Assembly (NCBI GenBank): GCA_020845455.1
Contig: JADLFO010000115.1
Location: 6,235-70,234 of the forward strand
Length of the DNA: 64,000 bases
Source of the DNA: Caldilineaceae bacterium
Lineage (GTDB): Bacteria > Chloroflexota > Anaerolineae > Caldilineales > Caldilineaceae
Direction: 5' to 3'
Made by a program: the position numbers and the translations under genes. Below are positions 7,347 to 46,863 of the stretch, piece by piece; the stretch's first letter is position 1; each line of letters begins with the position of its first letter. Below the pieces are notes generated by a model. The model saw only the letters and a program-made list of their open reading frames with translations. It was not told the DNA's origin and did not search any database.

Positions 7347-7508
7347 GGCAGGGAGACCATGGGTCATCCCGGCATTTGCGCGCCTATGGGCGCTGCATGT
7401 GCGGCTAGAAAACTGCACCGATGCGAAAGCCCCATTGATGGGGCGTGGTTCCTTGGCCCGGCAGCTTTAGCTCCGGGCGGGCTGAATTGCGTGCCAAGCC
7501 GTGTGGTT

Positions 7509-7538
7509 TTCAAAACGCCTGCCCGCGTGTGATATGAT
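7509..7538 (+). promoter_or_regulatory. Candidate sigma70-type promoter for 7597..10227
   Basis: TTCAAA (7509-7514), an 18-nt spacer, then TATGAT (7533-7538) preceded by TGA (an extended -10 TGnTATGAT). It lies in the only sizeable gap (250 bp) of the GT-C array. Confidence 0.35.
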
Positions 7539-7596
7539 GCACGTTGCTTTGGGGGGAGCAGAGGCGCCCCCGTGTGTCCATTGAGGAGAGTTTATT

Positions 7597-10227
7597 GTGT
7601 TAGAGAATATCAACCGCGCTGAGGCCGGTTTGCCGGTGGCCTCGACCGCCGGTAAAGCGATAGCGCAGCGCCAGAGCCGCGTGGGGGCGCATACCCGGCT
7701 TGCCACCCTGATCGCCGTAGCGGTCGTCGCGCTGGCGATCTGGCTGCCGCGCGCCTTTCAACTCGACCACTTTGTGACGATCGACGAGAGCAAATGGTTG
7801 GTGCGCGCCGGGAACTTCTACCAAGCGGTGGACAGCAGGACCTATGAGAACACCTTCCAGCACGGCCATCCGGGCGTGACGATCATGTATGCAGGGCTGG
7901 CGGGCTATCTGTGGCGCTTCCCCGACTATATTGAGAAGGTCGGCAGCCAGCAGCTTTGGAGCGACGAGTTCGCCCAGGCGCTAGAGTCCAACGGACACCA
8001 GCCGATCGATATGCTGGCCGCGGGACGCACCTTTATCGTCCTCTTCAATGTCATCGCCCTGTCGGTTGCCTTTGTCTATGCCATCAACCTGCTGGGTTTT
8101 TTACCCGCCCTGCTCGGCTTTTTGCTGATCGCCTTTGACCCCTTCCAGACGGCGCTTTCGCGCTTTTTGCATCCCGACAGCCTGCTCAGCCCCTTTATGC
8201 TGCTGGCGGCGTTTGCGTTGATGCACTATCTCTTTGCTGGGCGGCGGCTGCGCGACCTGATCGTCGCCGGCGCAGTCACCGGGCTGGCGATGTTGACCAA
8301 GACCCCGGCGATCTTCCTGCTCCCGCTGGCCGGGCTGTTCTGCCTGATCGAACTGGCCGACCAGATCACGTCGCGGCCGGGCTGGCGCTGGCGGGAGTTT
8401 TTGCGCTGGTCGTCGCTGAGCCGCATCCTGCGCACGCTGTTGATCTGGGGCGGGGTGGCGGCGCTGGTCTTTGTGACCTTGTGGCCCGCCATGTGGGTCG
8501 CGCCCTGGCAGACCATCAGCCAGGTCTTTGGCATCTCCGCCTTCTATGCGACCTCCGGGCACGGCAGCCCGGTTTTTTTCAACGGCACGATCTACAACGG
8601 CAACCCCGGCGCCGACTTCTACCCGATCAACTTCCTGTGGCGCACCACGCCGGTGGTTATGCTTGGCATCCTGCTCTTGATCCCCGGTTTCTGGCTGACG
8701 CGGCGCATCCAAGACCGCCGCGTGCGTCTTACGGCGCTGGGCATCGCCTCGATGGCCTTTTTCTTTATGGTCTTTATGAGCCTGGGCGCCAAGAAGTTCG
8801 ACCGCTATTTGCTGCCGGTCTTTATGCCTGTGGACCTTCTGGCCGCGCTGGGGCTGGCGATGGTGGCGCAGCGGCTCTTTCAGGCGCGCAGCCTGGCATG
8901 GATGCGCGGCCTCACGATTGCGCTGCTGGCTGTGGCGGTGGGGGCGCAGGCATGGCAGTCGCTGCCCCTCTTTCCCTATTACATGGACTATTACAACCCG
9001 GTGATGGGCGGGCCGGCCAAGGCCCCGGACGTGATGTTCATCGGCTGGGGCGAAGGGCTGGACGAGGCGGCGCGCTACTTGAACGATACGATCGACGTAA
9101 AGACGAACACCGTCGCCTCGTGGTATGAGCGCGGGCCGTTCAGCTATTTCTACAAGGGCCTCTCTACGCCCGACGAGCGCATTTGGGAAGCCGACTACTC
9201 GGTGCTCTACCGGCACCAGTGGCAGCGCGAACTGCCGACGCGGCGCATGTTGTCCAACTTCGACCAGTTGACGCCCGAAAAGAGCATCTGGCTCAACGAT
9301 ATGGAATATGTGCGCGTCTATGATATGCAGAAGGCCCCGCCCGCCGACTATATGGTCGAATGGAACGATGCCCTGCGCCTCGTCTTTTATGAGAACGACT
9401 CCGGCTCGGTCTATCCGGGGATGTGGTATGACGTCAACCTGTTCTTCCTCAAGACTGCGCCGGTGGATGTGAACTACAACATGCTGATGCGCGTGGTCAA
9501 CCCCGCCGGGGATGAACTGATCAAGGTGGACGAATGGCCCAAGGGCTGGCCGACGACGCAGCTTCAGGTGGGCCAGGTCTTGACCGATGTGCGTCATGGC
9601 CTCTTTATCTCCGAGGTGACGCCGGTGGGACCCTATCGCATTGAGGTGAGCTTTTATGACCCGGCGACCTTCGACCGGCTGCCCGCCAGGTCGGTGCGCA
9701 CCGGCCAACCGGCGGCCGACCCCTATGTGCTAGACTATATGGTGGTGGGCGATTGGCCGCTTGCCCCGGCGGGGCGCATCAGCCCCGCGGTCAACCTGGG
9801 CGATCAGGTGGAACTCTACGGTGCGGACCTGGTTCAGCCCGACGGCACGACGCGCAAGCTGGACGACGTGACCGTTGCACCGGGAGAGAGCCTCACGCTG
9901 CGCCTCAACTGGAAGGCGCTGGACTTTATCTACCAGGATTACACCGTCTTTGTACATCTGGTGGGGCCGGACGGACGGCCGATTGTGCAGGGCGACAGCC
10001 AACCCATGCACGGCTTTATCCCAACCTCCTATTGGCCGCCGCATCAAAAGATGGCGGACGACCATATGCTGACGATCCCGGCGGATGCCGCGCCCGGCGA
10101 ATATCGTCTGCTGGTCGGCTGGTATGACCTGGAGAGCCTGCAGCGGCTGCCCATGACGCAGGGGCAGAAAGCGATCGGCGACGCCTATCAGGTCGCGACT
10201 GTGACTGTGCAGGCGGCTGCCCGTTAG
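7597..10227 (+). CDS. Polytopic GT-C-fold membrane glycosyltransferase (GT39/ArnT-like) with two tandem C-terminal modules
   Basis: 876-aa ORF with GTG start at 7597, 6 nt after GAGGAGAG (7584-7590). Loop motif LDHFVTIDESKWLVRAGNFY. Paralog of 4788..7346. Module copies end in PVGPYRIEVSFYDPATFDRLPA and PGEYRLLVGWYDLESLQRLPM. Confidence 0.85.
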   Translation: MLENINRAEAGLPVASTAGKAIAQRQSRVGAHTRLATLIAVAVVALAIWLPRAFQLDHFVTIDESKWLVRAGNFYQAVDSRTYENTFQHGHPGVTIMYAGLAGYLWRFPDYIEKVGSQQLWSDEFAQALESNGHQPIDMLAAGRTFIVLFNVIALSVAFVYAINLLGFLPALLGFLLIAFDPFQTALSRFLHPDSLLSPFMLLAAFALMHYLFAGRRLRDLIVAGAVTGLAMLTKTPAIFLLPLAGLFCLIELADQITSRPGWRWREFLRWSSLSRILRTLLIWGGVAALVFVTLWPAMWVAPWQTISQVFGISAFYATSGHGSPVFFNGTIYNGNPGADFYPINFLWRTTPVVMLGILLLIPGFWLTRRIQDRRVRLTALGIASMAFFFMVFMSLGAKKFDRYLLPVFMPVDLLAALGLAMVAQRLFQARSLAWMRGLTIALLAVAVGAQAWQSLPLFPYYMDYYNPVMGGPAKAPDVMFIGWGEGLDEAARYLNDTIDVKTNTVASWYERGPFSYFYKGLSTPDERIWEADYSVLYRHQWQRELPTRRMLSNFDQLTPEKSIWLNDMEYVRVYDMQKAPPADYMVEWNDALRLVFYENDSGSVYPGMWYDVNLFFLKTAPVDVNYNMLMRVVNPAGDELIKVDEWPKGWPTTQLQVGQVLTDVRHGLFISEVTPVGPYRIEVSFYDPATFDRLPARSVRTGQPAADPYVLDYMVVGDWPLAPAGRISPAVNLGDQVELYGADLVQPDGTTRKLDDVTVAPGESLTLRLNWKALDFIYQDYTVFVHLVGPDGRPIVQGDSQPMHGFIPTSYWPPHQKMADDHMLTIPADAAPGEYRLLVGWYDLESLQRLPMTQGQKAIGDAYQVATVTVQAAAR

Positions 10228-10390: not shown

Positions 10391-11489
10391 ATGCGTCCTG
10401 CCGAGCGTTGGGCGGTTGTTTTCGATTGGCTCATCCCGCTCTTGCTCCTGCTGCCGCTGGCCTGGGCGCTGCTGCCGGGCGGCGTCGTCAACACGGCGGA
10501 CGGCAAGGTGCATTTTTACCGCGCCGCCGAAATGATCCACGCCTGGCAGGACGGCGTGCTGATCCCGCGCTGGTCACAGCATTTGGGCTTTGGCTACGGC
10601 ATCCCGCTCTTTGTCTATACGCCGCCGCTGCCCTCCTTTCTCACCGCCGGTCTGTATCACCTTGGCCTTACCCCCGAAGCCGCCTTCAAAGGCATGTGGC
10701 TGATCGCCATACTGTTGGCCGGCTACGGCGCTTACCATCTGGGGCGTGGGCTGCTGGACCGTTGGGCTGGGGCCGTGACGGCAGCCGCTTTTCTCTATAC
10801 TCCTTTCTTTCTGTGCGAACTCTTTATCCAGGGTAACGCCGCCCAATATCTGGCGTGGAGCTTTACGCCGTGGGTGGCGGCGGCGGTGATCCGGCTCTAT
10901 CGCGCCCCACGCGGGCGCGATGCCGTCTATTTGGCGCTGGCGCTGATGGGCGTACAGTTGAGCCATCATGTGGTGGCGTTGTTTGCGGCAGGGATGGTGG
11001 CTGGGTTGGGTCTGATCCTATTTGCTGTCACGCGCGACCGGCGTGGGTTGGGCTGGACCGTGGCAGGCGGCTGCTTGGGGCTGGCGTTGAGCGTTTGGTT
11101 CTGGGGGCCGGCGCTGCTGGAGGGACGCTATGTGGCGCTCAACCGCATCGTCGCCAGCGATTTTCATGCGCGCTTCATCCCCCTGGCTGAACTGACGGCC
11201 TGGCCGCCGCGCCTCGATACGGCGGCGATCAACCCCTATGTGGCGCTGACGCTGGGCGCGGTCCAAATTGCCGCCGCGCTGTTGGGGCTGGTGGGCGCTG
11301 CTGCGGCGCACCCCGCCCGGCGCGGCCCTGCCGGCTGTGCAGACGCGCGTCCTGGGCGGCGTGGCGCTGGATGCGCTGCAGCAGATCGCCGTGGGCGTCT
11401 ATCGGTTAGAGAGCGGGGAGCGTCTGCCCGCCGTCGACGGGCATAGCGTGCGCTTGGCCGGCGACGCGCTGATGCTCGCCTGGCCGTAG
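10391..11489 (+). pseudogene. Truncated/frameshifted PTPS-related (YfhO-like) GT-C-type membrane protein: the N-terminal membrane part is joined out of frame to the tail of the shared C-terminal module
   Basis: The frame of 10391..11446 gives a sensible polytopic sequence (DGKVHFYRAAEMIHAWQDGVLIPRWSQHLGFGYGIPLFVYTPPL...) up to ~11300, then Arg/Ala-rich junk. A different frame (11268..11489) ends ...LDALQQIAVGVYRLESGERLPAVDGHSVRLAGDALMLAWP, which is the end of the module seen in the five genes upstream. The total is ~365 aa, against 675-876 aa for the paralogs in this window. Confidence 0.5.
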
Positions 11490-24248: not shown

Positions 24249-24695
24249 CTAGTGGTCCATCGGGTGGGGATGCGCCTGGGCCACGGCCTGGCGGATATAA
24301 CCGGCGATCTCCTGGGTGGAGGCGCCCGGCCCAAAGACGGCGCGGATGCCCGCCGCCTGCAGCGCGGGGATATCCTCGTCGGGTACGATCCCGCCGACCA
24401 CCACGACGACCTGTCCTTGGCCCTGGGCGCGCAGCAGTTCCACCACCTTAGGGCAGAGCGTCAGGTGTGCGCCGCTGAGGATACTCATCCCCACCACGTC
24501 GACATCTTCTTGCAGGGCGGCCTCGGCGATCATCTGTGGCGTCTGGCGGATGCCGGTGTAGATCACCTCAAACCCGGCATCGCGCAGGGCGCGCGCCACC
24601 ACCTTGGCGCCGCGGTCGTGGCCGTCTAGCCCCGGCTTTGCCACCAGGACCCGGATTTTCATCTCATCGCGCCGGCTGTCAATTGGGTTGTCCAT
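24249..24695 (-). CDS. Methylmalonyl-CoA mutase-type small subunit (cobalamin-binding domain)
   Basis: [36 protein letters not shown] (DxHxxG B12 motif) ...[14 protein letters not shown]...VVVGGIVP. Confidence 0.9.
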
Positions 24696-24751
24696 AAGTC
24701 ACTCTCGCAAAAAATACGCTTGTAAAAACACGCTTCGTAAACAGATTATCT

Positions 24752-24780
24752 TTGACAGGAAGCGGGGCGGCTCGTATACT
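24752..24780 (+). promoter_or_regulatory. Near-consensus sigma70-type promoter pointing into the 960-bp gap
   Basis: TTGACA (24752-24757), a 17-nt spacer, then TATACT (24775-24780). Confidence 0.5.
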
Positions 24781-24832
24781 GCTCTAGCCGGCGACTGTGC
24801 CGGCGGATGTCCCTGTGTGGATGTTCATCTGT

Positions 24833-24879
24833 GCTCGTATCGTGATCGGCTCGTATCGTGATCATATCGCGATCGTACC
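24833..24879. repeat. Three tandem ~16-nt repeats (GCTCGTATCGTGATC x2, then a TATCGCGATCGTACC variant)
   Basis: Read directly. They lie between the candidate promoter and the small-ORF RBS, and share the TATCGTG core with the REP-like palindromes at 27238, 49193 and 55717. Confidence 0.7.
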
Positions 24880-24897
24880 AACCAGCGAGGAAACCCC

Positions 24898-25065
24898 ATG
24901 CAGCATCTAGCTCTTGCGCCGGCAGCGCTCTCTGAAGCTCTGTCGCGCGCTGTGCCTCTGCCCCGTCTAACCTCCCACCGTGCTGCCCTCTGCCTGACCC
25001 CTGCCTGTCCTCCTGCCGGTTGTTGTACCTGTTTCTGTACCTGCCCCTGTACGAAGGCCCGTTAA
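24898..25065 (+). CDS. Candidate small ORF (55 aa) encoding a Cys-rich peptide: MQHLALAPAALSEALSRAVPLPRLTSHRAALCLTPACPPAGCCTCFCTCPCTKAR
   Basis: ATG 24898 lies 6 nt after GAGGA (24887-24891) and ~118 nt downstream of the TTGACA/TATACT promoter. Stop TAA at 25063-25065. It is below the 60-aa cut-off of the ORF track. The Cys cluster coincides with an in-frame 12-nt periodicity (TGTACC at 25024 and 25036, TGTACG at 25048). Confidence 0.35.
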   Translation: MQHLALAPAALSEALSRAVPLPRLTSHRAALCLTPACPPAGCCTCFCTCPCTKAR

Positions 25066-25356
25066 CTCAACCTGCTGCGCGCCGGTCATCAACCCCCGGC
25101 AATCGGTCCCCACACGGGGCCGCAGGGCTGCCGACCGTGAGGCCGGCTGTGCGGGTCTTGCATCTCTACGCCGATATCTGCATGGAAGTCTAACATGCTT
25201 TGCGCGGCGATGCATCCTGCGCCGTAGGCTGCATCTGTTTGCCGAACCGGTTTTGTCGAGCCGGTCTAGCCAAACCGGCATTGCCAAACATGTTGAGTGA
25301 ATGGGCCGGCGCCGCGCCGCCTGTGCCGCAGCTCTGCTTGCGCCGTTGCAAGATGT

Positions 25357-25385
25357 TTGTTGGAGTGCGCGTCTTTGGTTAGAAT
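25357..25385 (+). promoter_or_regulatory. Candidate promoter for the 25658 ABC operon
   Basis: TTGTTG (25357-25362), a 17-nt spacer, then TAGAAT (25380-25385). It would give a ~265-nt leader. Confidence 0.3.
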
Positions 25386-25657
25386 AGAGCACGCCATCAG
25401 AACTGTCATCCGAACCAGCGGGAACAAGCCATCGCAAAGACGCGTGTGCGGACAGGGCATCGACCGGCCCCCGCCGGTCGCCTTAGCGTTTTGAGATCGG
25501 CCTGCCCCGCGACCTATCCCCCGGCCATGAGATCCGTGCGGCGGGCATCGCCCTGCCCAGGCCCAAGTGTAAAAAAGCCAACTTGCGAAGATACCCCGCA
25601 GAGGCTCATATAGAAGTCCGGTACTGTCACTCAGAAACTGTCTACGAGGAGAATGGT

Positions 25658-27226
25658 ATGCAAAAACGCACGACGTTGACGACACTGTTGCTGCTGGCTG
25701 TACTGCTGTTGGCGGCCTGCGCCCCCACGGCCCAGCCCGCCGCGCCCGCCGCAGGCGAAGCCGCCGCCCCCGCCGGCCCCAAGACGGGGGGCACGCTCAC
25801 GCTGTCGCTGGGTGAGGATTTCGTGACGTTTCATCCCTATTTTGACGTGACCAACGCCCAGATCAAACCGACCTTTTTCGAAGCGCCGATCCGCATCAGC
25901 GATGCCGGCGACTTTGAACCGTGGCTGGCCGAATCTTGGGAAGAAGGCGAAGATGGGCTGTCGGTCACGCTCCATCTGCGCCAGGGGATCAAATTTCATA
26001 ACGGGCGCGAACTGACCGCCGACGACGTGATCTGGTCGGTCGACTATGCGCGCAACGCCGAGTTGGGCCATCATCTCAGCGACCGCTTTCAGACCTGCAC
26101 CGGCGCCGAGAAGATCGACGACTACACGGTCAAGATCAACTACAGCGAGCACACGGCTTCGCAGCTAGACGGCATTGCGCGCCTCTATATCTTTCCGCAG
26201 GAAGCCGCCGAGACGATTGACACCGTGCCCGTGGGCACGGGGCCTTTCAAGTTTGTCGAATGGATCCCCGGCGACAGCATGACCGCCGAACGCTTTGAGG
26301 ACTACTGGCGTGAGGGGCTGCCCTATCTCGACAAGATCATCGTCAAGCCGATCCCCGACGAGCAGGCGCGTTTAGTGAATCTGGAATCCGGCAGCATCGA
26401 CGTCTTGGTGGGTGTTCCGCTGAGCGAAAAGGCGGGGCTGGCCCAGGAAGAGGGGATGGTTGTCGGCGAAGTGCCGCCAGGCTTTACCTTCTATGCCTTT
26501 ATCATGAATGTCAATGCGCCGCCCTTTGACGACGTCAAGGTGCGCCAGGCCTTTCAATATGCGATCAACCGCGAGGAGATCTCCCAGACCGCATTCCACG
26601 GCCAGGCCACGCCGCTCTTGGTCCCCTATCCTAAGACCTCCTGGGCCTATGCGCCGGACTTGGAAGATTATTACACCTATGACCCGGAAAAGGCCAAGGC
26701 GCTGCTGGCCGAGGCCGGTTATCCGGACGGCTTCTCGGTGCAGATGTTGATCCGCGGCACGGGCGGCCCGCACCTGGACCAGGCTCAGGTCTTCCAGCAG
26801 CAGTTGGCGGCCATTGGCGTGCAGGTGGAACTGTTGCCCACCGAGCTGCCACAATATTGGCCGCTGCTTTTTGAGAGCAAATTCGCGATCGTCTCGCACG
26901 CCACCGGCGACGCCACGGTTGACCCCAGCGGCCTGTTCGAAGGCGCGGCCTGCTGCCGGCCCTTCCGCAACTTCTTCGGCATCACCGAAAACCAGGACGA
27001 CTGGTTCCCGGAATATGAGCAGGTGATCCTGCAGGCGCGCGAGGAAAACGACCAGGCGGCGCGCAAGGAACACTATCACCGCGCGCTGGAAATCCTGCTG
27101 GAGCAGGCGTGGACTATCCCCACCGTGTGGGATCAGACCGTCCACGCCTATAAAAGCGACGTCAAGGACTTCCGCGTCGATATGGACGGGCTGCTCTGGA
27201 TGGGCGAGACCTGGCTGGATCGGTAG
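25658..27226 (+). CDS. ABC transporter substrate-binding lipoprotein, family 5 (Dpp/Opp/Nik-like)
   Basis: ATG 25658 after GAGGAG (25645-25650). Lipobox MQKRTTLTTLLLLAVLLLAAC. LAESWEEGEDGLSVTLHLRQGIKFHNGRELTADDV, GTGPFKFVEW, VKVRQAFQYAINREEI, YDPEKAKALLAEAGYPDG. Confidence 0.9.
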   Translation: MQKRTTLTTLLLLAVLLLAACAPTAQPAAPAAGEAAAPAGPKTGGTLTLSLGEDFVTFHPYFDVTNAQIKPTFFEAPIRISDAGDFEPWLAESWEEGEDGLSVTLHLRQGIKFHNGRELTADDVIWSVDYARNAELGHHLSDRFQTCTGAEKIDDYTVKINYSEHTASQLDGIARLYIFPQEAAETIDTVPVGTGPFKFVEWIPGDSMTAERFEDYWREGLPYLDKIIVKPIPDEQARLVNLESGSIDVLVGVPLSEKAGLAQEEGMVVGEVPPGFTFYAFIMNVNAPPFDDVKVRQAFQYAINREEISQTAFHGQATPLLVPYPKTSWAYAPDLEDYYTYDPEKAKALLAEAGYPDGFSVQMLIRGTGGPHLDQAQVFQQQLAAIGVQVELLPTELPQYWPLLFESKFAIVSHATGDATVDPSGLFEGAACCRPFRNFFGITENQDDWFPEYEQVILQAREENDQAARKEHYHRALEILLEQAWTIPTVWDQTVHAYKSDVKDFRVDMDGLLWMGETWLDR

Positions 27227-27319: not shown

Positions 27320-28270
27320 GTGGGTGTCTATGCGTTGAAACGGCTGTGGCAGATCGTGCCGGTGATGTTGCTCGTCTCGGTCGCCGTCTTCTCGATCATC
27401 CATCTGATACCGGGCAACCCTGCCCAGATCGTCGCCGGGCCAAATGCCACGCCCGAACAACTGGCCGCGCTGGAGGCGCGCATGGGGCTGGATCAGCCGC
27501 TGTGGACGCAGTATGTCATCTGGCTTAAGAATGTGCTCAGCGGCGACCTGGGCGTCTCCTACATCAACAAATACCCGGTGGGCAAGATGATCGCCCAGCG
27601 CGTCCCGGCCACGGTGGAACTGGCGCTGGTGTCGGGGGTGATTGCGCTGCTCATCGCCCTGCCCTTGGGGATTCTGGCGGCGCTGCGGCCCGGTTCGCCG
27701 ATCGACGTGATCACCACCGGCTTTTCGGCGCTGTCGTTTGCCATGCCCGGCTTCTTTCTGTTGATCCTCTTGATCATGCTCTTTAGCCAAGAACTGCGCT
27801 GGCTGCCGCCTTCGGGCCGGCCTTCGCTGCTGGAACAGCCAGGGCTGTGGGCCAAGTCGGTGATCATGCCCGCCTTTACGCTGGGCATTGGGGTGGCGGC
27901 CAACTTGGTGCGCTATCTGCGTTCCTCGCTGCTGGAGGTCTTGAACCAAGACTATGTGCGCACGGCGCGCGCCAAAGGGCTGGCCGAAAGGTGGGTGATC
28001 TGGCGTCATGCGCTGCCCAACTCGCTGATTCCGGTGGTCACGGTCTTTGGACTGCAACTGGGCGACCTACTAAGCGGCGCGATCATCATCGAGTCGATCT
28101 ATGCCTGGCCCGGTGTGGGCCGGCTTACGATCCAAGCCATCGAATGGCGCGACTATGCCTTATTGCAGGCCAACGTGCTCTTTATCGTCTTGGCCTTTCT
28201 GCTGGTCAACCTGCTCACCGACCTGACCTATGGCTGGTTGGACCCGCGCATCCGTTTGGATCAGGGCTAG
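27320..28270 (+). CDS. ABC transporter permease (DppB/OppB-type)
   Basis: 316 aa, 6 TM helices, signature QDYVRTARAKGLAERWVIWRHALPNS. Confidence 0.9.
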   Translation: MGVYALKRLWQIVPVMLLVSVAVFSIIHLIPGNPAQIVAGPNATPEQLAALEARMGLDQPLWTQYVIWLKNVLSGDLGVSYINKYPVGKMIAQRVPATVELALVSGVIALLIALPLGILAALRPGSPIDVITTGFSALSFAMPGFFLLILLIMLFSQELRWLPPSGRPSLLEQPGLWAKSVIMPAFTLGIGVAANLVRYLRSSLLEVLNQDYVRTARAKGLAERWVIWRHALPNSLIPVVTVFGLQLGDLLSGAIIIESIYAWPGVGRLTIQAIEWRDYALLQANVLFIVLAFLLVNLLTDLTYGWLDPRIRLDQG

Positions 28271-28277
28271 TCATCTC

Positions 28278-29192
28278 ATGTCAACTGCCAATCTCAGCCT
28301 GCGCGAGACCCAGACATCCGATCTGCCTGTGGAGCGCCAAATCCAAGAGGGCCTCACCCGCGCTGCGCTGCGCGCCTTCTTGCGCCACCGCACGGGGATG
28401 GCCGGGCTGATCTTGGTGCTGGCGCTGGCCGCGCTGGCGCTGGCCGCACCCTGGCTGGCCCCCTATGACCCGGTAGAGATGCACAGCGCCGACCGCTTTG
28501 CGCCGCCCTCCGCCGCCTATCTGATGGGGGCCGACGAGTTTGGCCGCGACCTCTGGAGCCGGGTGCTCTTTGGCGGGCGGGTGGCCTTTGCGGTGGGCGG
28601 CGTGTCGGTGGCGCTCGCCACGCTGATCGGCGTGACGCTGGGGGCCATCGCCGGCTATGAGTCGGGCTGGTTCGACTCGGTGGTCATGCGCTTCTTTGAC
28701 GCGCTGCTGGCCTTCCCGGCGATCCTGCTGGCGATTGTGATCCTGGCGGTGTTGGGGCCGGGCGCGCGCAATGCCATGCTGGCCGTGGCGATCGTCAATA
28801 TCCCGATCTTTGCGCGGCTGGCGCGCGCCAATGTGCTGGCCGAAAAGCACAAAGACTATGTGGACGCGACGCGCGCCATCGGCGCGCCGCACCGCCGCAT
28901 TCTGTTCCGCACCATCTTGCCCAACAGCTTGGCGACCATCATCGTGCAGATGACGGTCTCGTTTGCGGGCGCGGTGCTGCTCGAATCGTCGTTGAGCTTT
29001 TTGGGGCTGGGCGTGCCGCTGCCCGCGCCGTCGTGGGGGTCGATGTTGAGCATCGGGCGCGGCTATATGTCCCAATCTCCCTGGTATTCGATCTTCCCCG
29101 GCCTGGCGATCATGCTGCTGGTGCTGGGGGTCTATCTGCTGGGCGACGGTCTGCGCGATGTGCTGGACCCGCGACGGCAGAAATCCATTTAG
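28278..29192 (+). CDS. ABC transporter permease (DppC/OppC-type)
   Basis: Likely start ATG 28278 (MSTANLSL). GADEFGRDLWSRVLFG, KDYVDATRAIGAPHRRILFRTILPNS. Confidence 0.9.
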   Translation: MSTANLSLRETQTSDLPVERQIQEGLTRAALRAFLRHRTGMAGLILVLALAALALAAPWLAPYDPVEMHSADRFAPPSAAYLMGADEFGRDLWSRVLFGGRVAFAVGGVSVALATLIGVTLGAIAGYESGWFDSVVMRFFDALLAFPAILLAIVILAVLGPGARNAMLAVAIVNIPIFARLARANVLAEKHKDYVDATRAIGAPHRRILFRTILPNSLATIIVQMTVSFAGAVLLESSLSFLGLGVPLPAPSWGSMLSIGRGYMSQSPWYSIFPGLAIMLLVLGVYLLGDGLRDVLDPRRQKSI

Positions 29193-29209
29193 CTCTATCC
29201 ATGAGCAAA

Positions 29210-29244
29210 GCAGCGACCGCCGCTTGTCAAGCGGCGGTCGCTGC
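29210..29244 (+). terminator. 16-bp perfect hairpin after the permease gene
   Basis: GCAGCGACCGCCGCTT-GTC-AAGCGGCGGTCGCTGC, 18 nt after the stop at 29192. Confidence 0.5.
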
Positions 29245-29266
29245 AACCGAAAGGAGCAGGAATCTC

Positions 29267-30271
29267 GTGACATCCAGCATGAACCATTGGGAGCGCGTGC
29301 GGGCCGCGCTCAAGGGCGAAGAGGTCGACCGCGTGCCTGTCAGCCTGTGGCGGCACTGGCCGGTCGAGGATGAAACCGCCCAAGGGCTTGCCAACGCCAT
29401 GGTGCGCTGGCAGCGCCAATATGACTTTGACCTGGTCAAGTTTATGCCCACCGGCATGTACGGCGTGCATGACTGGGGCACACAGACGGTCTATAACCCC
29501 GGCTTCCGCGGCAACCGCATCTCCACCAAGCCGGGGCTGACCCAGGCCGAGGAATGGCCCAAGCTGGCAGCGCTCGACCCGACCCAAGGCGCACTCGGCC
29601 AAGAGGTGGAGGCCATCCGCCTGGCCGCCGAGGAACTCAAGGGCAGCGTGCCCATCTTGCAGACGATCTTTAGCCCGCTGACCACGGCGATCAAGCTGGC
29701 GGGCGACCGCGTGCATGGCGATATGCGGCTGCGCCCCGACCTGCTCAAGCAGGGGCTGGAGATCATCGCCGATGTGACGATCCGTTTCGCCCAGGCCTGT
29801 TTGCAGGCGGGCGCACACGGCGTCTTTTTCGCCACACAGGGGGCCAGCTATCGGCTCTTCAGCGAGGCAGAGTACAGCGAGTTTGGCGCGACCTATGACA
29901 TCAAGGTGCTCAACGCCATCCGCACCGACGAGACGCTCAATATGCTGCATGTTCATGGCCTCGACATCATGTTCGACCTGGCCGCCAGCTACCCGGTCGA
30001 GATGATCAACTGGCACGACCGTCTGACCTGGCCCTCGCTCAAAGAGGCGCAGAGCCGCTTCGACGGGCTGCTGGTGGGCGGTATCGACGACCAGGTGACG
30101 ATTGCCGAAGGGCCGATCGACAAGATCCGCTGGCAGGCGCGCGACGCCGTCGAGCAGACCGGCGGGCGGCGCATTCTGGTGGGGCCGGGCTGTGTGATCC
30201 CGACCAACACGCCCGACGCGCATGTGCGCGCCGTGATCGGGGCCGTGCAGGAGATGGCTGCGGTCAAGTGA
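29267..30271 (+). CDS. Uroporphyrinogen-decarboxylase (URO-D) family protein
   Basis: Probable GTG start at 29267, 10 nt after AAGGAG (29251-29256); ATG 29279 is an alternative. MNHWERVRAALKGEEVDRVPVSLWRHWP..., FDLVKFMPTGMY, TIM-barrel-like length. Confidence 0.75.
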   Translation: MTSSMNHWERVRAALKGEEVDRVPVSLWRHWPVEDETAQGLANAMVRWQRQYDFDLVKFMPTGMYGVHDWGTQTVYNPGFRGNRISTKPGLTQAEEWPKLAALDPTQGALGQEVEAIRLAAEELKGSVPILQTIFSPLTTAIKLAGDRVHGDMRLRPDLLKQGLEIIADVTIRFAQACLQAGAHGVFFATQGASYRLFSEAEYSEFGATYDIKVLNAIRTDETLNMLHVHGLDIMFDLAASYPVEMINWHDRLTWPSLKEAQSRFDGLLVGGIDDQVTIAEGPIDKIRWQARDAVEQTGGRRILVGPGCVIPTNTPDAHVRAVIGAVQEMAAVK

Positions 30272-30356: not shown

Positions 30357-31541
30357 ATGATCTACCCCATCACTGAACGGCAGGCACGGTTTATCGGCGT
30401 CGCGCGCAAGCTGGCCGCCAACTTCGGCCGCCGCGCTGCCGAACATGACCGCGCCGGCAGCTTTCCGTTTGAAAATATCGACGAACTCCGCGCCAGCGGG
30501 CTGCCCGGCCTGATCGTGCCGGAGGAGTTTGGCGGCTGGGGCGCAAACCTGCTGGAGACGCTGCGTACCGTGGAGACGCTGGCTGTGGGCGACGGCAGCA
30601 CCGCGCTCAGCGTCACCATGCATATGCAGACCTTGGGCAGCGCCGCCGAGACCCGCCACTGGCCACAGCCGCTCTTCCGCCGCGTCTGCGAGGCCGCGGT
30701 GCAGCGCGGCGCGCTGATCAACGCCCTGGCAAGCGAGCCGGAACTGGGCAGCCCCAGCCGCGGCGGTAAACCCAAGACCACGGCGCGGCCCGTGTCCGCC
30801 ATGGGTGATCGCCCCGCAGGTTGGCTGATCAATGGGCGCAAGAACTTCGCCAGCCTCAGCCCGGCGCTGGACTATATGGTGATCCTGGCGGCGCGCGAGG
30901 ACGGCAGCGACGCCAACGGCAACTTTGTGGTCGAGATAGGGCCGGGTGTCGAGATCGTCGAAACCTGGGACGCCATGGGCATGCGCTCCACCGGCAGCCA
31001 TGACGTGCTGCTGCACGATGTCTTTGTGCCCGCCGAGGCCTTGATCCACGCCGGCGGTAAGGGCGGACAGCCGCGCACCAATGCCTGGTTCCCGCTCACC
31101 CTCAGCGCCGTTTATGTGGGGGTGTCCGAGGCTGCGCTGCGCAGCGCAGCCGCCTATGCCCATGAACGCGTCCCCACTGCCCTGGGCAAACCGATCGCCG
31201 AGTTGGAGAGCATCCAGCGGCGGCTGGGTCAGGCCGAACTGCTGCTGCACCAGGGGCGTGCCCTGCTCTATCAGACGGCTGCGCTGTGGGATGAACGCCC
31301 CGACTGCCGCGATGCCCTGGCCGAATCGATCCTCGTCGCCAAATATACCGCCACCAATAATGCTGTGGCCGCCGTCGACGCCTGTATGCGTGTGGTGGGC
31401 GGCGCGGGCATGAGCCGCAGCCTGCCGCTGGAACGCTATTACCGCGACGTGCGCGGCGGACTCAACCACCCCATGAACGACGACCAACTCTATGTTCACC
31501 TGGGGCAGAATGTCTTGGCCCGCCCCCAAGGAACCGCCTAG
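30357..31541 (+). CDS. Acyl-CoA dehydrogenase family protein
   Basis: 394 aa. ...AAEHDRAGSFPFENIDELRASGLPGLIVPEEFGGWGANLLE..., WDAMGMRSTGSHDVLLHDVFVP, C-terminal helical domain. Confidence 0.85.
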   Translation: MIYPITERQARFIGVARKLAANFGRRAAEHDRAGSFPFENIDELRASGLPGLIVPEEFGGWGANLLETLRTVETLAVGDGSTALSVTMHMQTLGSAAETRHWPQPLFRRVCEAAVQRGALINALASEPELGSPSRGGKPKTTARPVSAMGDRPAGWLINGRKNFASLSPALDYMVILAAREDGSDANGNFVVEIGPGVEIVETWDAMGMRSTGSHDVLLHDVFVPAEALIHAGGKGGQPRTNAWFPLTLSAVYVGVSEAALRSAAAYAHERVPTALGKPIAELESIQRRLGQAELLLHQGRALLYQTAALWDERPDCRDALAESILVAKYTATNNAVAAVDACMRVVGGAGMSRSLPLERYYRDVRGGLNHPMNDDQLYVHLGQNVLARPQGTA

Positions 31542-34441: not shown

Positions 34442-35395
34442 GTGGGCGCGGTCGCCGGGTGGGCCGGGGTCGCGCCCCGCAGAGGAAGGTCTTTGACGGA
34501 CGAATCGACGGCTCCCCGGCTGCCGCTCAAGCCGGTGTGGATTCACGACCTGTTGATCTTGTGGCGGCGTAACCAGTCGGTTGCGCTGCTCTTGGAGCGG
34601 GCCGGCGACTATGCCGCCCAGGAGATCCGCAGCGCAAGCGTGCGCCGCGCCGTGCTCGCCCAGATCGCGGCGCATTTTGTCGAGACGCGCCGCCACGGCA
34701 AGGCGGCGCGCACGCTGCCGCAAAATGTCTGGGCCGGCTACAGCCGCAACTTTCCCGCCGCCGCGCTGGCCCCGGCCTATCTGGTCCATTTGGCGGCGCA
34801 GTGGCCGCTGGCACTCGACTTGACCGCGGCCTTGGCCGGCAGGCTGACGCCGGGTCAAGGGCTGGACCAGGTCTTCGACGAGGCGCTGCTGGCCCAACTG
34901 CTCGGCACGGGGCCGGGCGGCAGCGCCGAGCCGGACGGTGGGCGTCCGGCCGAGCTGGACGCCTGGCTGCGCACGCTGCACTATTTTGGCTTGCTGGCGG
35001 CACGGCGCAGCGCCGGCGTCGAGGCCCTGGCCGGACGCTATGTCTTTGCCGGTCGCATGGCCGTGCCGCCGCCGATCTTCCCGCTCTTGGTCTGGACCTG
35101 GTGGCAGCGGCAGGGGACGCCCATCGTGGACTTGGCGGACTTTGCCCGCTCGCCGCTGCTGGGTTGGATGGCAGCCGAGGATTTCGCCGCAGGCTGGACG
35201 GCTGCCGCGGGCAAGCTCTGGACGCTGGACGCGTCGGGCTGTTCTGCTCGGCTGCACCCCGGCGACCGCGCCGAGTTTGTGCGGGCGCTGCTCAATTTGC
35301 TCTCCACCGATGGGCGCCGCGGGCGCAACCTGCCGCGCCGGGGCGAACCGCCCGAACCGCCCGCCGAAGCGGCGGTGCGGGCGAGTCACAGCTAG
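34442..35395 (+). CDS. Hypothetical protein with no recognisable family
   Basis: 317-aa ORF (GTG start) with ordinary, non-junk composition. It is followed by a canonical intrinsic terminator at 35426-35466. The overlapping antisense ORF 34331..35566 is Arg-rich junk. Confidence 0.45.
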   Translation: MGAVAGWAGVAPRRGRSLTDESTAPRLPLKPVWIHDLLILWRRNQSVALLLERAGDYAAQEIRSASVRRAVLAQIAAHFVETRRHGKAARTLPQNVWAGYSRNFPAAALAPAYLVHLAAQWPLALDLTAALAGRLTPGQGLDQVFDEALLAQLLGTGPGGSAEPDGGRPAELDAWLRTLHYFGLLAARRSAGVEALAGRYVFAGRMAVPPPIFPLLVWTWWQRQGTPIVDLADFARSPLLGWMAAEDFAAGWTAAAGKLWTLDASGCSARLHPGDRAEFVRALLNLLSTDGRRGRNLPRRGEPPEPPAEAAVRASHS

Positions 35396-35425
35396 ACAAC
35401 ACCTCAACCACCCACCTTTGGTCTG

Positions 35426-35466
35426 GCAGAGGGGGACGGCGCAACTGCCGTCCCCCTCTGCTTTTG
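35426..35466 (+). terminator. Intrinsic terminator (15-bp stem plus T-run)
   Basis: GCAGAGGGGGACGGC-GCAACT-GCCGTCCCCCTCTGC followed by TTTT, 30 nt after the stop at 35395. Confidence 0.7.
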
Positions 35467-35500
35467 CTCTGGCACTTTCAGGGGTACAATAGCCGATATT

Positions 35501-35551
35501 GGCGACGGTCGTCGCCGTTGACCATCCTGGCGACGGTCGTCGCCGTTGACC
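35501..35551. promoter_or_regulatory. Two direct copies of a 23-nt element, each containing a 6-bp/4-nt-loop palindrome; candidate operator upstream of the CPBP protease gene
   Basis: GGCGACGGTCGTCGCCGTTGACC at 35501-35523 and 35529-35551, separated by ATCCT. It lies 27 nt upstream of ATG 35578. Confidence 0.4.
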
Positions 35552-35577
35552 GCAGCACCGCATCATTGACTAAATCT

Positions 35578-36609
35578 ATGCACTCGTTGTTGTGGCCGAT
35601 TTGGAACGGGGCCGAGGGGAGGGTGCGCGCCGGTTGGCGCATCTTGATCCACCTGGGTCTTTTCCTCTTTGCGCCGCCGCTTCTGAACCAGGCCGTTGGC
35701 CCTGCGATTAGCCGCACCATTGCCTATCTCGCACCGGACCTTGCCCTCCTGAGCGACCGGCTTACGCTGGCCGCGCTGCGCTTGCTGGCGGTGCTTGTCA
35801 GCACCGCCCTGGTAGTCTATTGGGTCGACCGGCGGCCTTGGCGCGATCTCGGCTTGCACATGGGGCGCGCCTGGTGGATCGACCTGGCGTTTGGGCTGGT
35901 CTTGGGCGCGGTGCTCATGACCTTTGTCTTTGTGGTGCAATATGTAGCGGGCTGGGTGGAGGTGCGCGAATTCTTTGCCGTCGAACTGGTCGACACCCCC
36001 TTTGTCATTGCCATCTTGGGGCCGCTGGCCGTCTTTGTGGTGGTGGGCATCACCGAGGAACTGCTCTCGCGCGGCTATCAACTGCGCAACCTGGCTGAAG
36101 GGCTGAACATGCGTTGGTGGGGGCCGCGCCCTGCCATCATCGCCGCCTGGGTGGTCTCCTCGTCGCTCTTTGGCCTGCTGCACATCTTTAACCCCAACGC
36201 CACCTGGATCAGCACCGTCTATCTGATGTTGGCGGGTCTCTTTTTGGGGCTGGGGTATGTACTCACCGGGCGGCTGGGGCTGCCGATCGGGCTGCATATC
36301 ACCTGGAATTTCTTTCAAGGTAACATCTACGGCTTCCCTGTCAGCGGCAACACCTTTAGCAGCGTCACCGTCATCGCCATTCGCCAGGGCGGCCCGGCGC
36401 TGTGGACAGGCGGGGCCTTTGGGCCGGAGGCCGGCTTGATCGGCATCGTGGCGATCCTGCTCGGCTGTCTGCTGACGCTGGCGTGGGTGCGTGTGTGCGA
36501 AGGCCGGCTGCAGTTCTATCTGCCGCTGGCCTGCTATCGCCCGCGGCGCGCGGCGCGGGCCGGCGGCTCGCCCCCCAATGCCGCTGCCCCGCGGCCTGAT
36601 GGCGGTTAG
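35578..36609 (+). CDS. CPBP-family (CAAX/Abi) intramembrane metalloprotease
   Basis: Motifs [44 protein letters not shown]; 8 or so TM helices. It is the 3' part of track ORF 34801..36609, whose 5' part is out-of-frame overlap with 34442..35395. Confidence 0.85.
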
Positions 36610-38134: not shown

Positions 38135-38382
38135 TGCGGTGCAAAATGGCTAGAGTAGAAATAGCTGAAGTAGATTTCTGTGGCAAACGACCCGGTGGTG
38201 CATGGCCTTTTGCCGATGTCGCCGGGACTGTTTGGTCTCGCAGTGACCTGCCCCGCCCGGCTGCATCCTCTCTGCCCCGCGCAGAGGGCATTTCCAACGG
38301 GAGATGACCGTTTTTTTGGCAGGCTCGCCGGCAATTTGCCATGATGCCTGCCTATCTGTATCTATCGATGGAGCATACCTTC

Positions 38383-39396
38383 ATGGCAAAATTGCTGGAA
38401 GTGAAGAACCTTAGAACCCAGTTCTTCACGCAAGATGGCGTTGTCCATGCCGTCAACGGCATCTCCTATTCGGTCGATAAAGGAGAGACAATCGCCATCG
38501 TGGGCGAGTCCGGCTCCGGCAAAAGCGTCGGGGTCATGTCCCTGATCCGGCTGATCCCACAGCCGCCGGGCAGAATCGTCGACGGCGAAGTCTGGTTCGA
38601 CGGGCAGGACTTGCTCAAACTCAGCGAAGACGAGCTGCGCCATGTGCGCGGCAATCGCATCGCCATGATCTTCCAAGACCCCATGACCTCGCTCAATCCG
38701 GTGCTTACGATTGGGCGGCAGATCACCGAGGCGCTCGAACTGCACCTAGATATGAACAAGGAGCAAAGCCGCAAGCGCGCCGTCCAATTGCTGGAGATGG
38801 TCGGCATCCCCGGTGCGGAATCGCGCCTGGACGACTACCCGCACCAGTTCTCCGGGGGGATGCGCCAGCGTGTGATGATTGCCATGGGGTTGAGCTGCAA
38901 CCCCCAACTGCTGATCGCCGACGAGCCAACCACCGCGCTCGACGTGACGATCCAGGCGCAGATCATCGACCTAGTAACTCGTCTCAAAGAAGAACTGGGC
39001 ATGTCCATCATTTGGATCACCCACGACCTGGGCGTCGTCGCCGGCATGGCGCAGCGCGTGCTCGTCATGTATTCGGGTTTCATCATCGAGGAAGCGCCGG
39101 TCGACCAGATCTACGCCAACCCGCGCCACCCCTACACGCTCGGCCTGCTGCGCTCGATCCCGCGGCTGGACTTGGGCCGCCAAAAGCGTCTGATCCCCAT
39201 TGAAGGGCTGCCGCCGGACCTGTTGGAACTGCCCAACCAGTGCCCGTTTGCGCCGCGCTGTGCATTTGTGATCGAAAAATGTTGGCAGGAGAACCCGCCG
39301 TTGGAGTTGGTGGGGCCAAACCATCGCGCCGCCTGCTGGGTCGATATTTCGAATGTGAAGGTGCATGTGACCGAAACCGAGGAGGCCGTGCAATGA
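38383..39396 (+). CDS. ABC transporter ATP-binding protein (OppD/DppD-type)
   Basis: Start ATG 38383 ([14 protein letters not shown]). Walker [10 protein letters not shown], signature FSGGMRQRV, Walker [14 protein letters not shown]-terminal Opp/Dpp extension ([11 protein letters not shown]...CPFAPRC). Confidence 0.9.
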
Positions 39397-40436
39397 GTCC
39401 GGCAACCGGCGCAGTTCAGACTTATTCCGCCGCTCAGCCTGCCGCGACCAATGGCCGCGGCGAGTCGCTGCTGAAGGTGCGCGACCTCAAGATGCACTTC
39501 CCCATCACACGCGGCATCATCTTTCAGCGCCAGGTGGGCGCGATCAAAGCCGTGGATGGGGTGGATTTCTCCATGGTCAAGGGAGAAACCCTGGGGCTGG
39601 TGGGCGAATCGGGCTGTGGCAAATCCACCACGGGTCGCGCCATTCTCCAACTCTATCGCCCGACCGACGGCGAGGTCTTTTTCGAAGGCGTGGACCTGAC
39701 CAAGACCAAGGGCGAAGAGCTGCGCAAGATGCGCCGCCGCATGCAGATGATCTTTCAAGACCCCTATGCCTCGCTCAACCCGCGCATGACCGTGGGCAGC
39801 ATCATCGGCGAGCCGCTTGAAGTACATAACATCGGCAGCAGCAAAAAGGAGCGTCAAGAGCGCGTCCAAGAATTGCTCAAGACGGTGGGGCTGAACCCCT
39901 ATTTTGTCAACCGCTACCCGCATGAGTTTTCCGGCGGTCAGCGCCAGCGCATCGGTGTGGCGCGCGCCTTGGCCGTCAACCCCGCCTTTATCGTCTGCGA
40001 CGAGCCGATCTCGGCGCTGGACGTGTCGATCCAGGCGCAGATCATCAACCTTTTGGAAGACCTGCAAGACGAGTTGGGGCTGACTTATCTCTTTATCGCG
40101 CACGATTTGTCGGTCGTGCGCCATATCTCCGACCGCATTGCGGTGATGTATCTTGGCAAAATTGTGGAGTTGGCCGACCGTGATGAACTGTATGCCAACC
40201 CCATGCACCCTTATACCCAGGCGTTGCTCTCGGCGGTGCCCATCCCCGACCCGGTGGTGGAAAGCCAGCGCCGGCGCATCATCCTGGAAGGCGATGTGCC
40301 CAGCCCGGCCAACCCCCCCAAGGGCTGCAACTTCTCCACCCGCTGCCCGCGCGTGATGGACATCTGTCGGGAGAAGGAGCCGCCCTTTAAGGGGTATGCG
40401 CCGGGTCACCATACGGCGTGTTGGCTGTATGAATAG
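39393..40436 (+). CDS. ABC transporter ATP-binding protein (OppF/DppF-type)
   Basis: ATGA overlap with the upstream stop and GAGGAG at 39380-39385. [46 protein letters not shown]. Confidence 0.9.
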
Positions 40437-40609
40437 CGCAAGATAGCTTCCCGGAAGCTCGGCGCTTCCGGGAAGCTCTGATCCCGCAGCTTGTACGGCA
40501 GCGCCGCCGCAGGGCCGGTTCAACTGTGTGAGAACAGCATCTGTCTACCTTTGAAGACTGATTGTCCGGTTCTTGCACTCGTGTCACTATACAAAGGAGT
40601 ATGGAGCGT

Positions 40610-42400: not shown

Positions 42401-42417
42401 CCCCTTCGTCGTGAACT

Positions 42418-42467
42418 CACCTGCTGTTCCGGATGAAGCAAGACAAGCTTATCCGGAACAGCAGGTG
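42418..42467 (+). terminator. 17-bp perfect hairpin between the SBP and permease genes (attenuator/stabiliser candidate)
   Basis: CACCTGCTGTTCCGGAT-N16-ATCCGGAACAGCAGGTG, 18 nt after the stop at 42400. Confidence 0.45.
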
Positions 42468-42503
42468 TTCGTATAAAGGCTAGAAGTAGCAAAACCAACC
42501 ATC

Positions 42504-44778: not shown

Positions 44779-44789
44779 ACGGTCTCCGC

Positions 44790-46838: not shown

Positions 46839-46863
46839 CGTTGCTCCGCTGCATACAACAATG

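Follow-up and report, generated by a model that had tools for sequence, protein, structure and literature searches.

What is encoded in the gap between a gene for a B12-binding mutase subunit and the operon of an ATP-binding cassette (ABC) importer is the question raised by positions 24752-25065 of a 64,000-nt stretch of Caldilineaceae DNA (contig JADLFO010000115.1, phylum Chloroflexota), here called the window. A reading based on the letters of this DNA alone (the sequence-only reading) had pointed to an unannotated 55-codon open reading frame (ORF) for a Cys-rich peptide behind a near-consensus promoter. It had left four interpretations side by side: a precursor of a ribosomally synthesized and post-translationally modified peptide (RiPP), a small metal-binding peptide, a leader peptide that senses Cys-tRNA supply for the importer downstream, and an untranslated protein-binding array. 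Comparison with orthologous loci showed the ORF to be genuine and conserved among related bacteria of the Caldilineaceae. To judge from this comparison it is very probably translated, and there is about an even chance that it represents an upstream ORF (uORF) whose translation serves to sense Cys-tRNA supply for the ABC-importer operon.

The ORF occupies positions 24898-25065 of the forward strand, with a TAA stop codon at 25063-25065, and translates exactly as previously quoted (MQHLALAPAALSEALSRAVPLPRLTSHRAALCLTPACPPAGCCTCFCTCPCTKAR). All Cys residues of the peptide lie within its last 24 residues, at positions 32, 37, 42, 43, 45, 47, 49, and 51. They number eight rather than the nine counted earlier, and six of the eight Cys codons are TGT and two TGC, instead of seven TGT out of nine. 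This Cys-codon cluster spans 24991-25050, and its last member is located four codons from the stop. The in-frame 12-nt periodicity that had been noted in this part of the ORF was recovered by Tandem Repeats Finder (period 12, 2.4 copies, 25024-25052). Cys accounts for 14.2% of the ORF residues, compared with 0.6% in genes. The GC content at third codon positions (GC3) was 0.54 in the ORF and 0.83 in genes, at a GC content of 64% for the window, and the ORF employs codons (CCT, GCT, and CTA) that are rare in window genes. The earlier impression that TGT is the rarer Cys codon in this DNA was correct, since the 34 long high-GC3 ORFs of the window contain 40 TGT and 57 TGC codons.

Upstream of the ORF, the sigma-70-type promoter was confirmed at 24752-24780 on the forward strand, with TTGACA at 24752-24757 and TATACT at 24775-24780, separated by a 17-nt spacer and matching the consensus at 11 of 12 positions. 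In a consensus scan this was the top-scoring promoter-like site of the region, where three such sites were seen in 2 kb against 0.3 expected. The predicted 5' untranslated region (UTR), from the end of the -10 hexamer at 24780 to the ATG at 24898, is approximately 110 nt long including a Shine-Dalgarno (SD) sequence. The untranslated leader proper extends over 24781-24886, and the SD sequence GAGGA (24887-24891), which stands 6 nt before the ATG, was found, like the ATG itself, where the sequence-only reading had placed it. An A-rich repeat of 14-15 nt (AAAAACACGCTTCGT, 2.2 copies) is present at 24710-24741, directly 5' of the -35 hexamer, and is mostly retained in the closest relative (L001). 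It may be an UP-like element or a portion of the control region of the divergent mutase gene.

ORFs of this kind escape annotation: among the examined loci, the ORF had been called as a gene in only one, as a 54-aa gene in a Logan assembly. Database searches gave no homologue. No record with the exact sequence of the peptide was found, and the same held for the MCM ORF. A profile built from four versions of the peptide had no match at E ≤ 10 among 5.8e9 proteins, and searches against Pfam and NCBIfam yielded no significant match (up to E ≤ 10), the sole match being listeriolysin S at E 0.91. A phmmer search of 1.84e9 representative proteins returned a single match, an 815-aa repeat protein, whose score came from 11 repeated low-complexity stretches and which was rejected as spurious. 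The rarity of such ORFs was estimated by scanning both strands of 1.74 Mb of fetched loci plus the window (3.5 Mb scanned) for ORFs of 18-90 codons with an ATG start, an SD-like site, and at least six Cys within 20 residues. Five ORFs qualified. Four of these were the window ORF and its syntenic counterparts in the relatives L001-L003, while the fifth was an antisense artefact inside a gene. A Cys-rich ORF found 5' of another solute-binding protein (SBP) gene (L031) was likewise antisense to a gene, and two further Cys-rich ORFs of the window (2975-3103 and 10416-10535) lay inside long ORFs; all three were discarded.

The SBP sequence itself points to a member of the Caldilineaceae as the source of the window. 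Orthologous loci were collected from three sources: species genomes, metagenomes, and assemblies containing exact SBP homologues. Nine distinct versions of the ORF were obtained, namely that of the window and those of L001, L161, L162, L002 (identical to L163), L003, L165, L168, and L166. All were found in Caldilineaceae loci, and always between a B12-binding mutase gene and an operon encoding a family-5 SBP, permeases, and an MtaA-like protein. The SBPs of the eight ORF-bearing relatives are 96-76% identical to that of the window. Each of the nine versions combined a TTGACA/TATACT promoter with a 17- or 18-nt spacer, an SD sequence, an ATG, and a frame of 48-62 codons with 5-10 Cys in its C-terminal third. 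The SD sequences (GAGGAG, AAGGAG, or AAGGAA/GGAAGG) were located 5-8 nt 5' of the ATG. The reading frame was thus kept in all nine versions, whereas the conserved Cys spacing that the sequence-only reading had proposed as a test was not found.

Sequence conservation was concentrated in a few blocks. Relative to L001, the promoter segment and the segment from SD to ATG were each 100% identical, whereas the 5' UTR segment was 77% identical with 10 gap columns. Neither this segment nor any other intergenic DNA could be aligned across the window, L002, and L003, the exceptions being the promoter, the ORF, and an RNA domain located downstream of the ORF. SD and ATG were recognizable in every version although the leader around them was unalignable. 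In L002 and L003, the predicted 5' UTR was approximately 75-80 nt long, and a consensus scan gave a single promoter-like site placed to transcribe both the small ORF and the SBP gene. The 16-nt tandem repeat in the 5' UTR (24833-24874) behaved differently. It had been described as three tandem copies forming part of the unit, but only two copies are perfect (24833-24863), the third being an overlapping, degenerate 80% copy at an 11-nt offset. Since one copy is gone in L001 and the segment is unalignable in L002 and L003, the repeat is not a conserved functional array.

Evidence for translation came from reading phase. Summed over eight lineages, frames 0, 1, and 2 across the ORF span contained 0, 13, and 12 stop codons and 61, 22, and 30 TGY triplets, respectively. 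The alignment of the ORF with that of L001 contained no indels, against 10-26 gap columns per ~100 nt in the flanks, and that with L002 contained one 3-nt indel, which retained the frame. For comparison, approximately 9-21% of the four-fold degenerate sites of the flanking genes differed between the window and L001.

Within this frame, constraint appeared to act on the Cys codons. The ratio of non-synonymous to synonymous change (pN/pS) was 0.30-0.65 for the ORF in five pairs, compared with 0.08-0.20 for the SBP. The N-terminal halves fell into three mutually dissimilar groups, and only Met1 and two Cys columns were invariant across the nine versions, although one subgroup retained an N-terminal PWLPNPTSVIPV stretch. 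The positions of the Cys codons shifted while their number remained, through compensation, at 5-10, and one Cys of the window peptide is replaced by Tyr in L001, whose SBP is 96% identical. In all versions the last Cys codon was located 0-5 codons from the stop, and consecutive Cys codons occurred in eight of the nine. Moreover, TGT and TGC were used in a ratio of 51:10 (84% TGT) in the ORF versions, although genes prefer TGC (40:57). Other two-fold degenerate codons ending in a pyrimidine in the same ORFs showed a T:C ratio of 23:31 (Fisher 5e-6). UGU is decoded by tRNA-Cys(GCA) through G:U wobble. Such a bias would be anticipated where, beyond the encoded amino acid, the codons themselves or the kinetics of their decoding are important, and the preference for UGU fits a device whose output depends on the speed of Cys-codon decoding. 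These patterns suggest that selection does not act on the peptide sequence as a whole and that the Cys codons themselves are constrained.

The RNA domain, at 25149-25222 of the forward strand, was predicted to contain three helices around the junction GGAAGUCUAAC: P1 (25149-25154 paired with 25217-25222) encloses the hairpins P2 (25159-25162 with 25179-25182) and P3 (25195-25215). It was 93% identical to its counterpart in L001, compared with ~84% at neutral sites. A covariance model located the domain 22-85 nt past the ORF stop in L001 (9367-9461), L002 (9785-9880), L003 (1780-1870), L162 (2340-2432), L165 (2157-2253), and L168 (1367-1443). A marginal, diverged match in L161 would make this an eighth lineage, while no match was found in L166 or elsewhere in ~600 kb. 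With a hand-drawn structure and four sequences, 92.9% of alignment cells were paired and five double changes were counted. In a seq­uence set extended to seven, 91.5% of cells were paired, seven pairs had changed on both sides, and none of 500 shuffles reached the score, in an alignment that had been fitted to the covariance model and therefore favoured the structure. Rfam 15 gave no match in the window at gathering thresholds, and a permissive search of 24600-25700 returned two chance-level matches (E 1.1 and 9.4), neither of which overlapped the domain. The domain, which lacks a U-tract, would constitute a new orphan RNA motif and could be a riboswitch-like element or an expression platform. 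Two elaborations of it were rejected. A second mini-ORF at a conserved ATGCAT within the domain varied from 5 to more than 70 codons and has ACG in place of its start in L168, and a pseudoknot between junction AGUCUA and downstream UAGGCU was, upon inspection of the alignment, restricted to the window.

The locus has the architecture of ribosome-mediated attenuation: on one strand, a strong promoter is followed by an SD-led ORF in which codons for a single rare amino acid are clustered at the 3' end, then by a structured leader, and finally by the operon. If this architecture is functional, the promoter would transcribe the ORF, the three-helix RNA domain, and the operon in that order, so that the ORF and the SBP gene would be co-transcribed, in line with the absence of an intrinsic terminator between the two in scans of L002 and L003. 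When charged tRNA-Cys is plentiful, ribosomes would traverse the ORF and be released, the long leader would remain repressing, and few transcripts or ribosomes would arrive at the SBP gene. When Cys-tRNA is scarce, ribosomes would instead stall at the Cys cluster, close to the 3' terminus of the ORF, with others queuing behind them, thereby altering the fate of the downstream leader and raising expression of the operon. Output might be exerted via access of Rho to the C-rich, G-poor ORF RNA or via the way in which the RNA domain folds. With a C/G ratio of 1.7-2.4, the ORF RNA ranks within the top 1-5% of the window, a composition compatible with a Rho-loading site that is masked by translating or queued ribosomes. 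Among the interpretations offered by the sequence-only reading, this Cys-codon leader is the one favoured by the comparative data: a first cistron with conserved SD, ATG, frame, and Cys cluster, and with a TGT bias. In this model, Cys-tRNA as the signal, the direction of regulation, and the output step are predictions.

Several observations weigh against a Cys-tRNA-sensing leader. The Cys tract is A-poor (8-18% A) and all three forward frames are open around the cluster, so that openness alone is weak evidence for an ORF; it was dropped as an argument and replaced by stop counts over the whole span, the distribution of TGY triplets over frames, and indel phase in more lineages. These frame statistics, and those of codon usage, treat related lineages as independent and are hence optimistic. 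At the RNA level, base pairing between the Cys tract and the SBP-gene SD, the mechanism known from mycobacteria, gave duplex energies no better than those of dinucleotide shuffles, and in silico masking of the Cys tract freed this SD inconsistently. Duplexes between the Cys tract and the RNA domain were not significant relative to shuffles, except in L001. Terminator scans detected one weak terminator-like hairpin in the window spacer, at 25337, and no intrinsic terminator between ORF and SBP gene in L002 and L003. Hairpins at the ORF stop codon had z-scores near 0, and whole-leader folds were no more stable than shuffles. An ORF of 48-62 codons and a distance of 221-595 nt between ORF and SBP gene are large for classical leaders. 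No evidence for a link of the operon to cysteine or sulfur was obtained: the operon proteins are not sulfur-poor, and their matches to GsiB, SfnB, and a desulfinase are ordinary family-level matches far below cut-offs. Finally, the ORF is absent from orthologous SBP operons of other Caldilineaceae, including Litorilinea aerophila (L164).

The distribution of the ORF among orthologous loci is as follows. In L. aerophila (SBP 81% identical) and some 20 more distant orthologues with lower SBP identity, the ORF is lacking, and the upstream genes are different and often include a URO-D gene. In L004 and L099, whose SBPs are ~74-76% identical to that of the window, the MCM-B12/SBP junction and a promoter-like site are kept, and neither the Cys ORF nor the RNA domain was found in the leader. 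The promoter-like site in L004 (5528-5565, identical in L099) reads CTTTGACAGG...TATAAAT and is followed by an unrelated leader of ~950 nt with 51% GC. There, the entire leader module appears to have been replaced.

The peptide itself, rather than its decoding, might be the product. A trans-acting Cys-rich micropeptide co-expressed with the importer, serving, for example, as a redox buffer, as a thiol acceptor, or, like a metallothionein, in the binding of metal or corrinoid, is considered unlikely, although translation signals and Cys richness are kept in all nine versions, pN/pS is below 1, and the N-terminal stretch retained in one subgroup would suit a functional peptide. Its neighbours also have metal- or corrinoid-related themes: the permeases are of the Nik/Opp type, the MtaA-like protein belongs to a Zn/corrinoid methyltransferase family, and the divergently transcribed genes upstream encode MeaB and the B12-binding mutase subunit. 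Bacterial metallothioneins (the SmtA/BmtA family and MymT of M. tuberculosis) are peptides of ~50 residues with 7-10 Cys, and in length and Cys count the ORF product resembles them. Unlike metallothioneins, it has no family match, no conserved Cys/His pattern, and no adjacent metal-responsive regulator (none was found in the 64-kb window), and its N-terminal half is Cys-free and non-conserved, being unrelated between groups. A metal-binding role, one of the options of the sequence-only reading, is made further unlikely by variable Cys spacing and by the loss of a Cys to Tyr between loci with 96%-identical SBPs. It would also leave unexplained a synonymous bias towards TGT that is specific to Cys and runs against the genomic preference. 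In addition, no protein homologue was found in Pfam, NCBIfam, or elsewhere, and the ORF is missing from most orthologous SBP/URO-D operons.

A less probable explanation has promoter, Cys ORF, and three-helix RNA acting as one composite sensor of a new type in which the peptide is more than a gauge of Cys-tRNA. In such a sensor, a new riboswitch-like RNA domain might have its folding gated by ribosomes stalled on UGU codons. Alternatively, feedback on the importer might come from the Cys-rich peptide, either nascent or after release, upon binding of a metal, of a corrinoid, or of a methyl-thiol intermediate on which the MtaA-like protein acts.

It is similarly improbable that a translated uORF reports a signal other than Cys-tRNA, such as translation capacity via Rho polarity, a metal or small molecule acting on the nascent chain, or a ligand of the RNA domain, which would then be the actual sensor, a riboswitch that the ORF merely assists in folding. 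The architectural evidence is the same as for Cys-tRNA sensing, a covarying RNA domain accompanies the ORF in at least seven of the nine versions, and the function of the operon is without a sulfur theme. Against this, the number and type of Cys codons is the one feature kept in all versions, which points to Cys decoding itself. The RNA domain is without an Rfam relative, and no ligand or partner could be proposed for it from sequence.

Selection might also act on the nucleotides, with the frame being incidental: either a pyrimidine-rich, C>G Rho-loading tract or a UGY array bound by a TRAP/HutP-like RNA-binding protein. The A-poor tract (8-18% A, C/G up to 2.4), the three open frames around the Cys cluster, a GC3 far below that of genes, and nucleotide conservation that extends beyond the stop codon of L002 (AGGCCCG..CAACCTG) are in line with this explanation, and the UGU preference could reflect a binding motif. 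It is nevertheless judged quite improbable. SD and ATG occur at the proper distance and in frame with the TGY triplets in all nine versions, the other two frames carry stops over the whole ORF span (0/13/12), and indels are absent relative to L001 and limited to 3 nt relative to L002. The tracts of L165, L166, and L168 are less A-poor (16-18% A) and still keep the frame. Known triplet-repeat binders recognize repeats with spacers of 2-3 nt, unlike the TGY spacing observed here, which is always a multiple of three. The specific proposal of an untranslated TGTACC-N6 protein-binding array was contradicted, because the TGTACC spacing is lost (it is absent in L003, L165, L166, and L168) while SD, ATG, and the in-frame position of TGY are conserved.

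A RiPP precursor, with a leader and a Cys/Thr/Pro core for azole or thioether modification by maturases encoded elsewhere in the genome, is highly improbable: its Cys/Thr/Ser/Pro-rich C-terminus resembles thiopeptide or thiazole/oxazole-modified microcin (TOMM) cores in composition, its sole, non-significant family match was to the TOMM listeriolysin S (E 0.91; score 9 bits, cut-off 33), and a CPBP/Rce1-like protease gene lies ~10 kb off, but Pfam scans confirmed that no YcaO, LanB/C/M/KC, radical-SAM, or other maturase gene is present in the 64 kb, every locus has identical housekeeping and transport neighbours, no precursor family or homologue was matched, and the supposed leader is the least conserved part, varying more than the Cys-rich half, the opposite of RiPP precursors.

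Between the RNA domain and the SBP gene, the forward strand contains a long spacer (25223-25657). The ORF stop and the SBP start are 592 nt apart in the window, compared with 221-273 nt in L002, L003, and L162, and an additional ~350-430 nt of spacer is unique to the window and L001. The possibility that this extra spacer is a duplicate of the leader was rejected, as the local alignment score of 21 compared with 20.3 ± 2.7 for shuffles. The spacer holds a 14-nt tandem repeat (TTTGCCGAACCGGT, 3.7 copies, 25238-25289), also restricted to the window and L001, in a stretch that is missing in L002 and L003. A further, conserved stretch (25341-25450) shares 92% identity with L001, more than the neutral level, and holds a perfect 10-nt inverted repeat (25368-25377 and 25435-25444). 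A promoter-like site on the minus strand (25409 to 25381, 9 of 12 positions) would give rise to transcripts antisense to both the ORF and the RNA domain.

The operon starts with the family-5 solute-binding lipoprotein gene (25658-27226, forward strand; Pfam SBP_bac_5, E 4e-99), its first long gene. The top NCBIfam matches of this SBP were GsiB, Opp4A, and NikA, all far below cut-offs (187 bits against 594 for the glutathione binder GsiB, the best match), and its neighbours in the PDB bind peptides, glutathione, dipeptides, heme, and nickel. It is followed on the same strand by two Opp/Nik-type permease genes (27320-28270 and 28230-29192), identified by Pfam and NCBIfam, a URO-D family (MtaA/CmuA-like) gene in the ORF 29033-30271, whose true start is probably near 29250, and a gene with a type-2 acyl-CoA-dehydrogenase (ACAD) fold (30357-31541). 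The closest structures to the ACAD-fold protein are 5Z8T and 5GJ7, neither of which is mentioned in the literature searched, and its matches to SfnB and sulfinopropanoyl-CoA desulfinase were generic and at family level only. All matches of operon proteins to functional sub-families were far below curated cut-offs. The operon contains no ATPase gene; OppD/F-type pairs are located elsewhere in the window (38341-40436 and 49283-51483). Linkage of the SBP and permease genes to one to three URO-D-family genes, upstream or downstream, was seen in almost every orthologous locus, with or without the small ORF (loci including L082, L087-L094, L136, L161, L164, and L165). These features suggest that Caldilineaceae possess an uncharacterised module combining import with a methyltransferase (or decarboxylase).

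Upstream of the 960-nt gap that precedes the SBP gene, the divergent genes encode the B12-binding mutase subunit, MeaB, and phosphoglucomutase. Gene calls for orthologues of the B12-binding subunit give 135-145 aa. In the window, the start of this ORF is probably the internal Met (MKIRVLV, near 24662) and not that at 24695, whose longer N-terminus is overlapped by a promoter-like site on the minus strand (24682 to 24655). Pfam scans of essentially all long ORFs of the 64-kb window detected no RiPP maturase, metal regulator, or cysteine gene. An Rce1-like (CPBP family) intramembrane protease gene is present at 34801-36609, ~10 kb downstream; some bacteriocin clusters hold members of this family, and no evidence ties this gene to the ORF. 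A dense array of Opp/Dpp-type ABC genes (38341-57591) comprises four more SBP_bac_5 genes, three permease pairs, and two OppD/F ATPase pairs, and none of its systems is preceded by a Cys-rich ORF. Four consecutive large paralogues of 675-876 aa, each with a PMT_2-type glycosyltransferase domain, occupy 173-10227. Altogether, the rest of the window encodes four more Opp-type systems, glycosyltransferases, and housekeeping genes.

Control of an operon by a Cys-codon leader would not be new in principle. In classical attenuators (trpL, hisL, and leuL), read-through depends on where the ribosome stands on a leader-peptide ORF rich in codons for a single amino acid, and in the tna leader (TnaC) the ribosome governs access of Rho, not a hairpin terminator. 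The logic of a leader peptide is shared with these systems. Unlike in classical leaders, no alternative 1:2, 2:3, and 3:4 hairpins could be defined in the Caldilineaceae locus, and the ORF is three to four times longer.

The polycysteine small-ORF attenuators of mycobacteria (Ms5788A, Rv2334A, and others), which have been proven experimentally, unmask the SD sequence of the gene that follows (Canestrari et al., 2020; bioRxiv 10.1101/834739; Mol Microbiol 114:93). Like these, the ORF analyzed here is an unannotated short first cistron behind an apparently constitutive promoter, in which Cys codons cluster towards the C-terminus and the remainder is weakly conserved; it is also lineage-restricted and independently evolving. 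The mycobacterial ORFs are leaderless, in contrast to the ~110-nt 5' UTR and SD of the window ORF. Their Cys tract pairs with the next SD, whereas pairing was at chance level in the Caldilineaceae loci and the gene is 221-595 nt away. Their operons contain recognizable cysteine genes instead of an uncharacterised importer, and the separate conserved RNA domain and the phylum, Chloroflexota, are further differences.

Candidate Cys leader peptides have also been described 5' of cys/cbs operons of Actinobacteria, with Rho proposed as the output (Seliverstov et al., 2005; PMC1262725). In both cases, a short leader ORF carries runs of Cys codons close to its stop and no terminator hairpin is recognizable, and the proposed output is compatible with the C-rich, G-poor ORF RNA found here. 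The actinobacterial leaders differ in preceding cysteine biosynthesis genes, in being much shorter, and in that no structured domain has been described for them. In Rhodobacterales, the uORFC-8-2 motif consists of a Cys-Cys uORF 5' of cysS (Brewer et al., 2021; PMC8632094). It shares with the Caldilineaceae ORF an SD, conserved Cys codons, and proposed sensing of Cys-tRNA by ribosome stalling. However, its two tandem Cys codons, mostly UGC, are located in a stem before an intrinsic terminator, and the gene downstream encodes Cys-tRNA synthetase, whereas 5-10 Cys codons, mostly UGU, precede a transporter operon without a terminator in the loci analyzed here.

Sensing by Cys-codon uORFs has thus been proven experimentally only in mycobacteria and predicted in a few Actinobacteria and Rhodobacterales, and this type of switch has not previously been described in Chloroflexota. 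New in the present case are the phylum, an ORF that is SD-led, long, UGU-biased, and paired with an RNA domain, and its location before an importer instead of cys genes. The leader would also provide a candidate lead to the substrate class, perhaps cysteine or a sulfur source, of an uncharacterised SBP/MtaA-like operon that is widespread in Caldilineaceae. If the proposed mechanism is correct, this well-conserved example from Chloroflexota would indicate that the same solution as in mycobacteria, Actinobacteria, and Rhodobacterales arises repeatedly, and that it can control nutrient import as well as biosynthesis.

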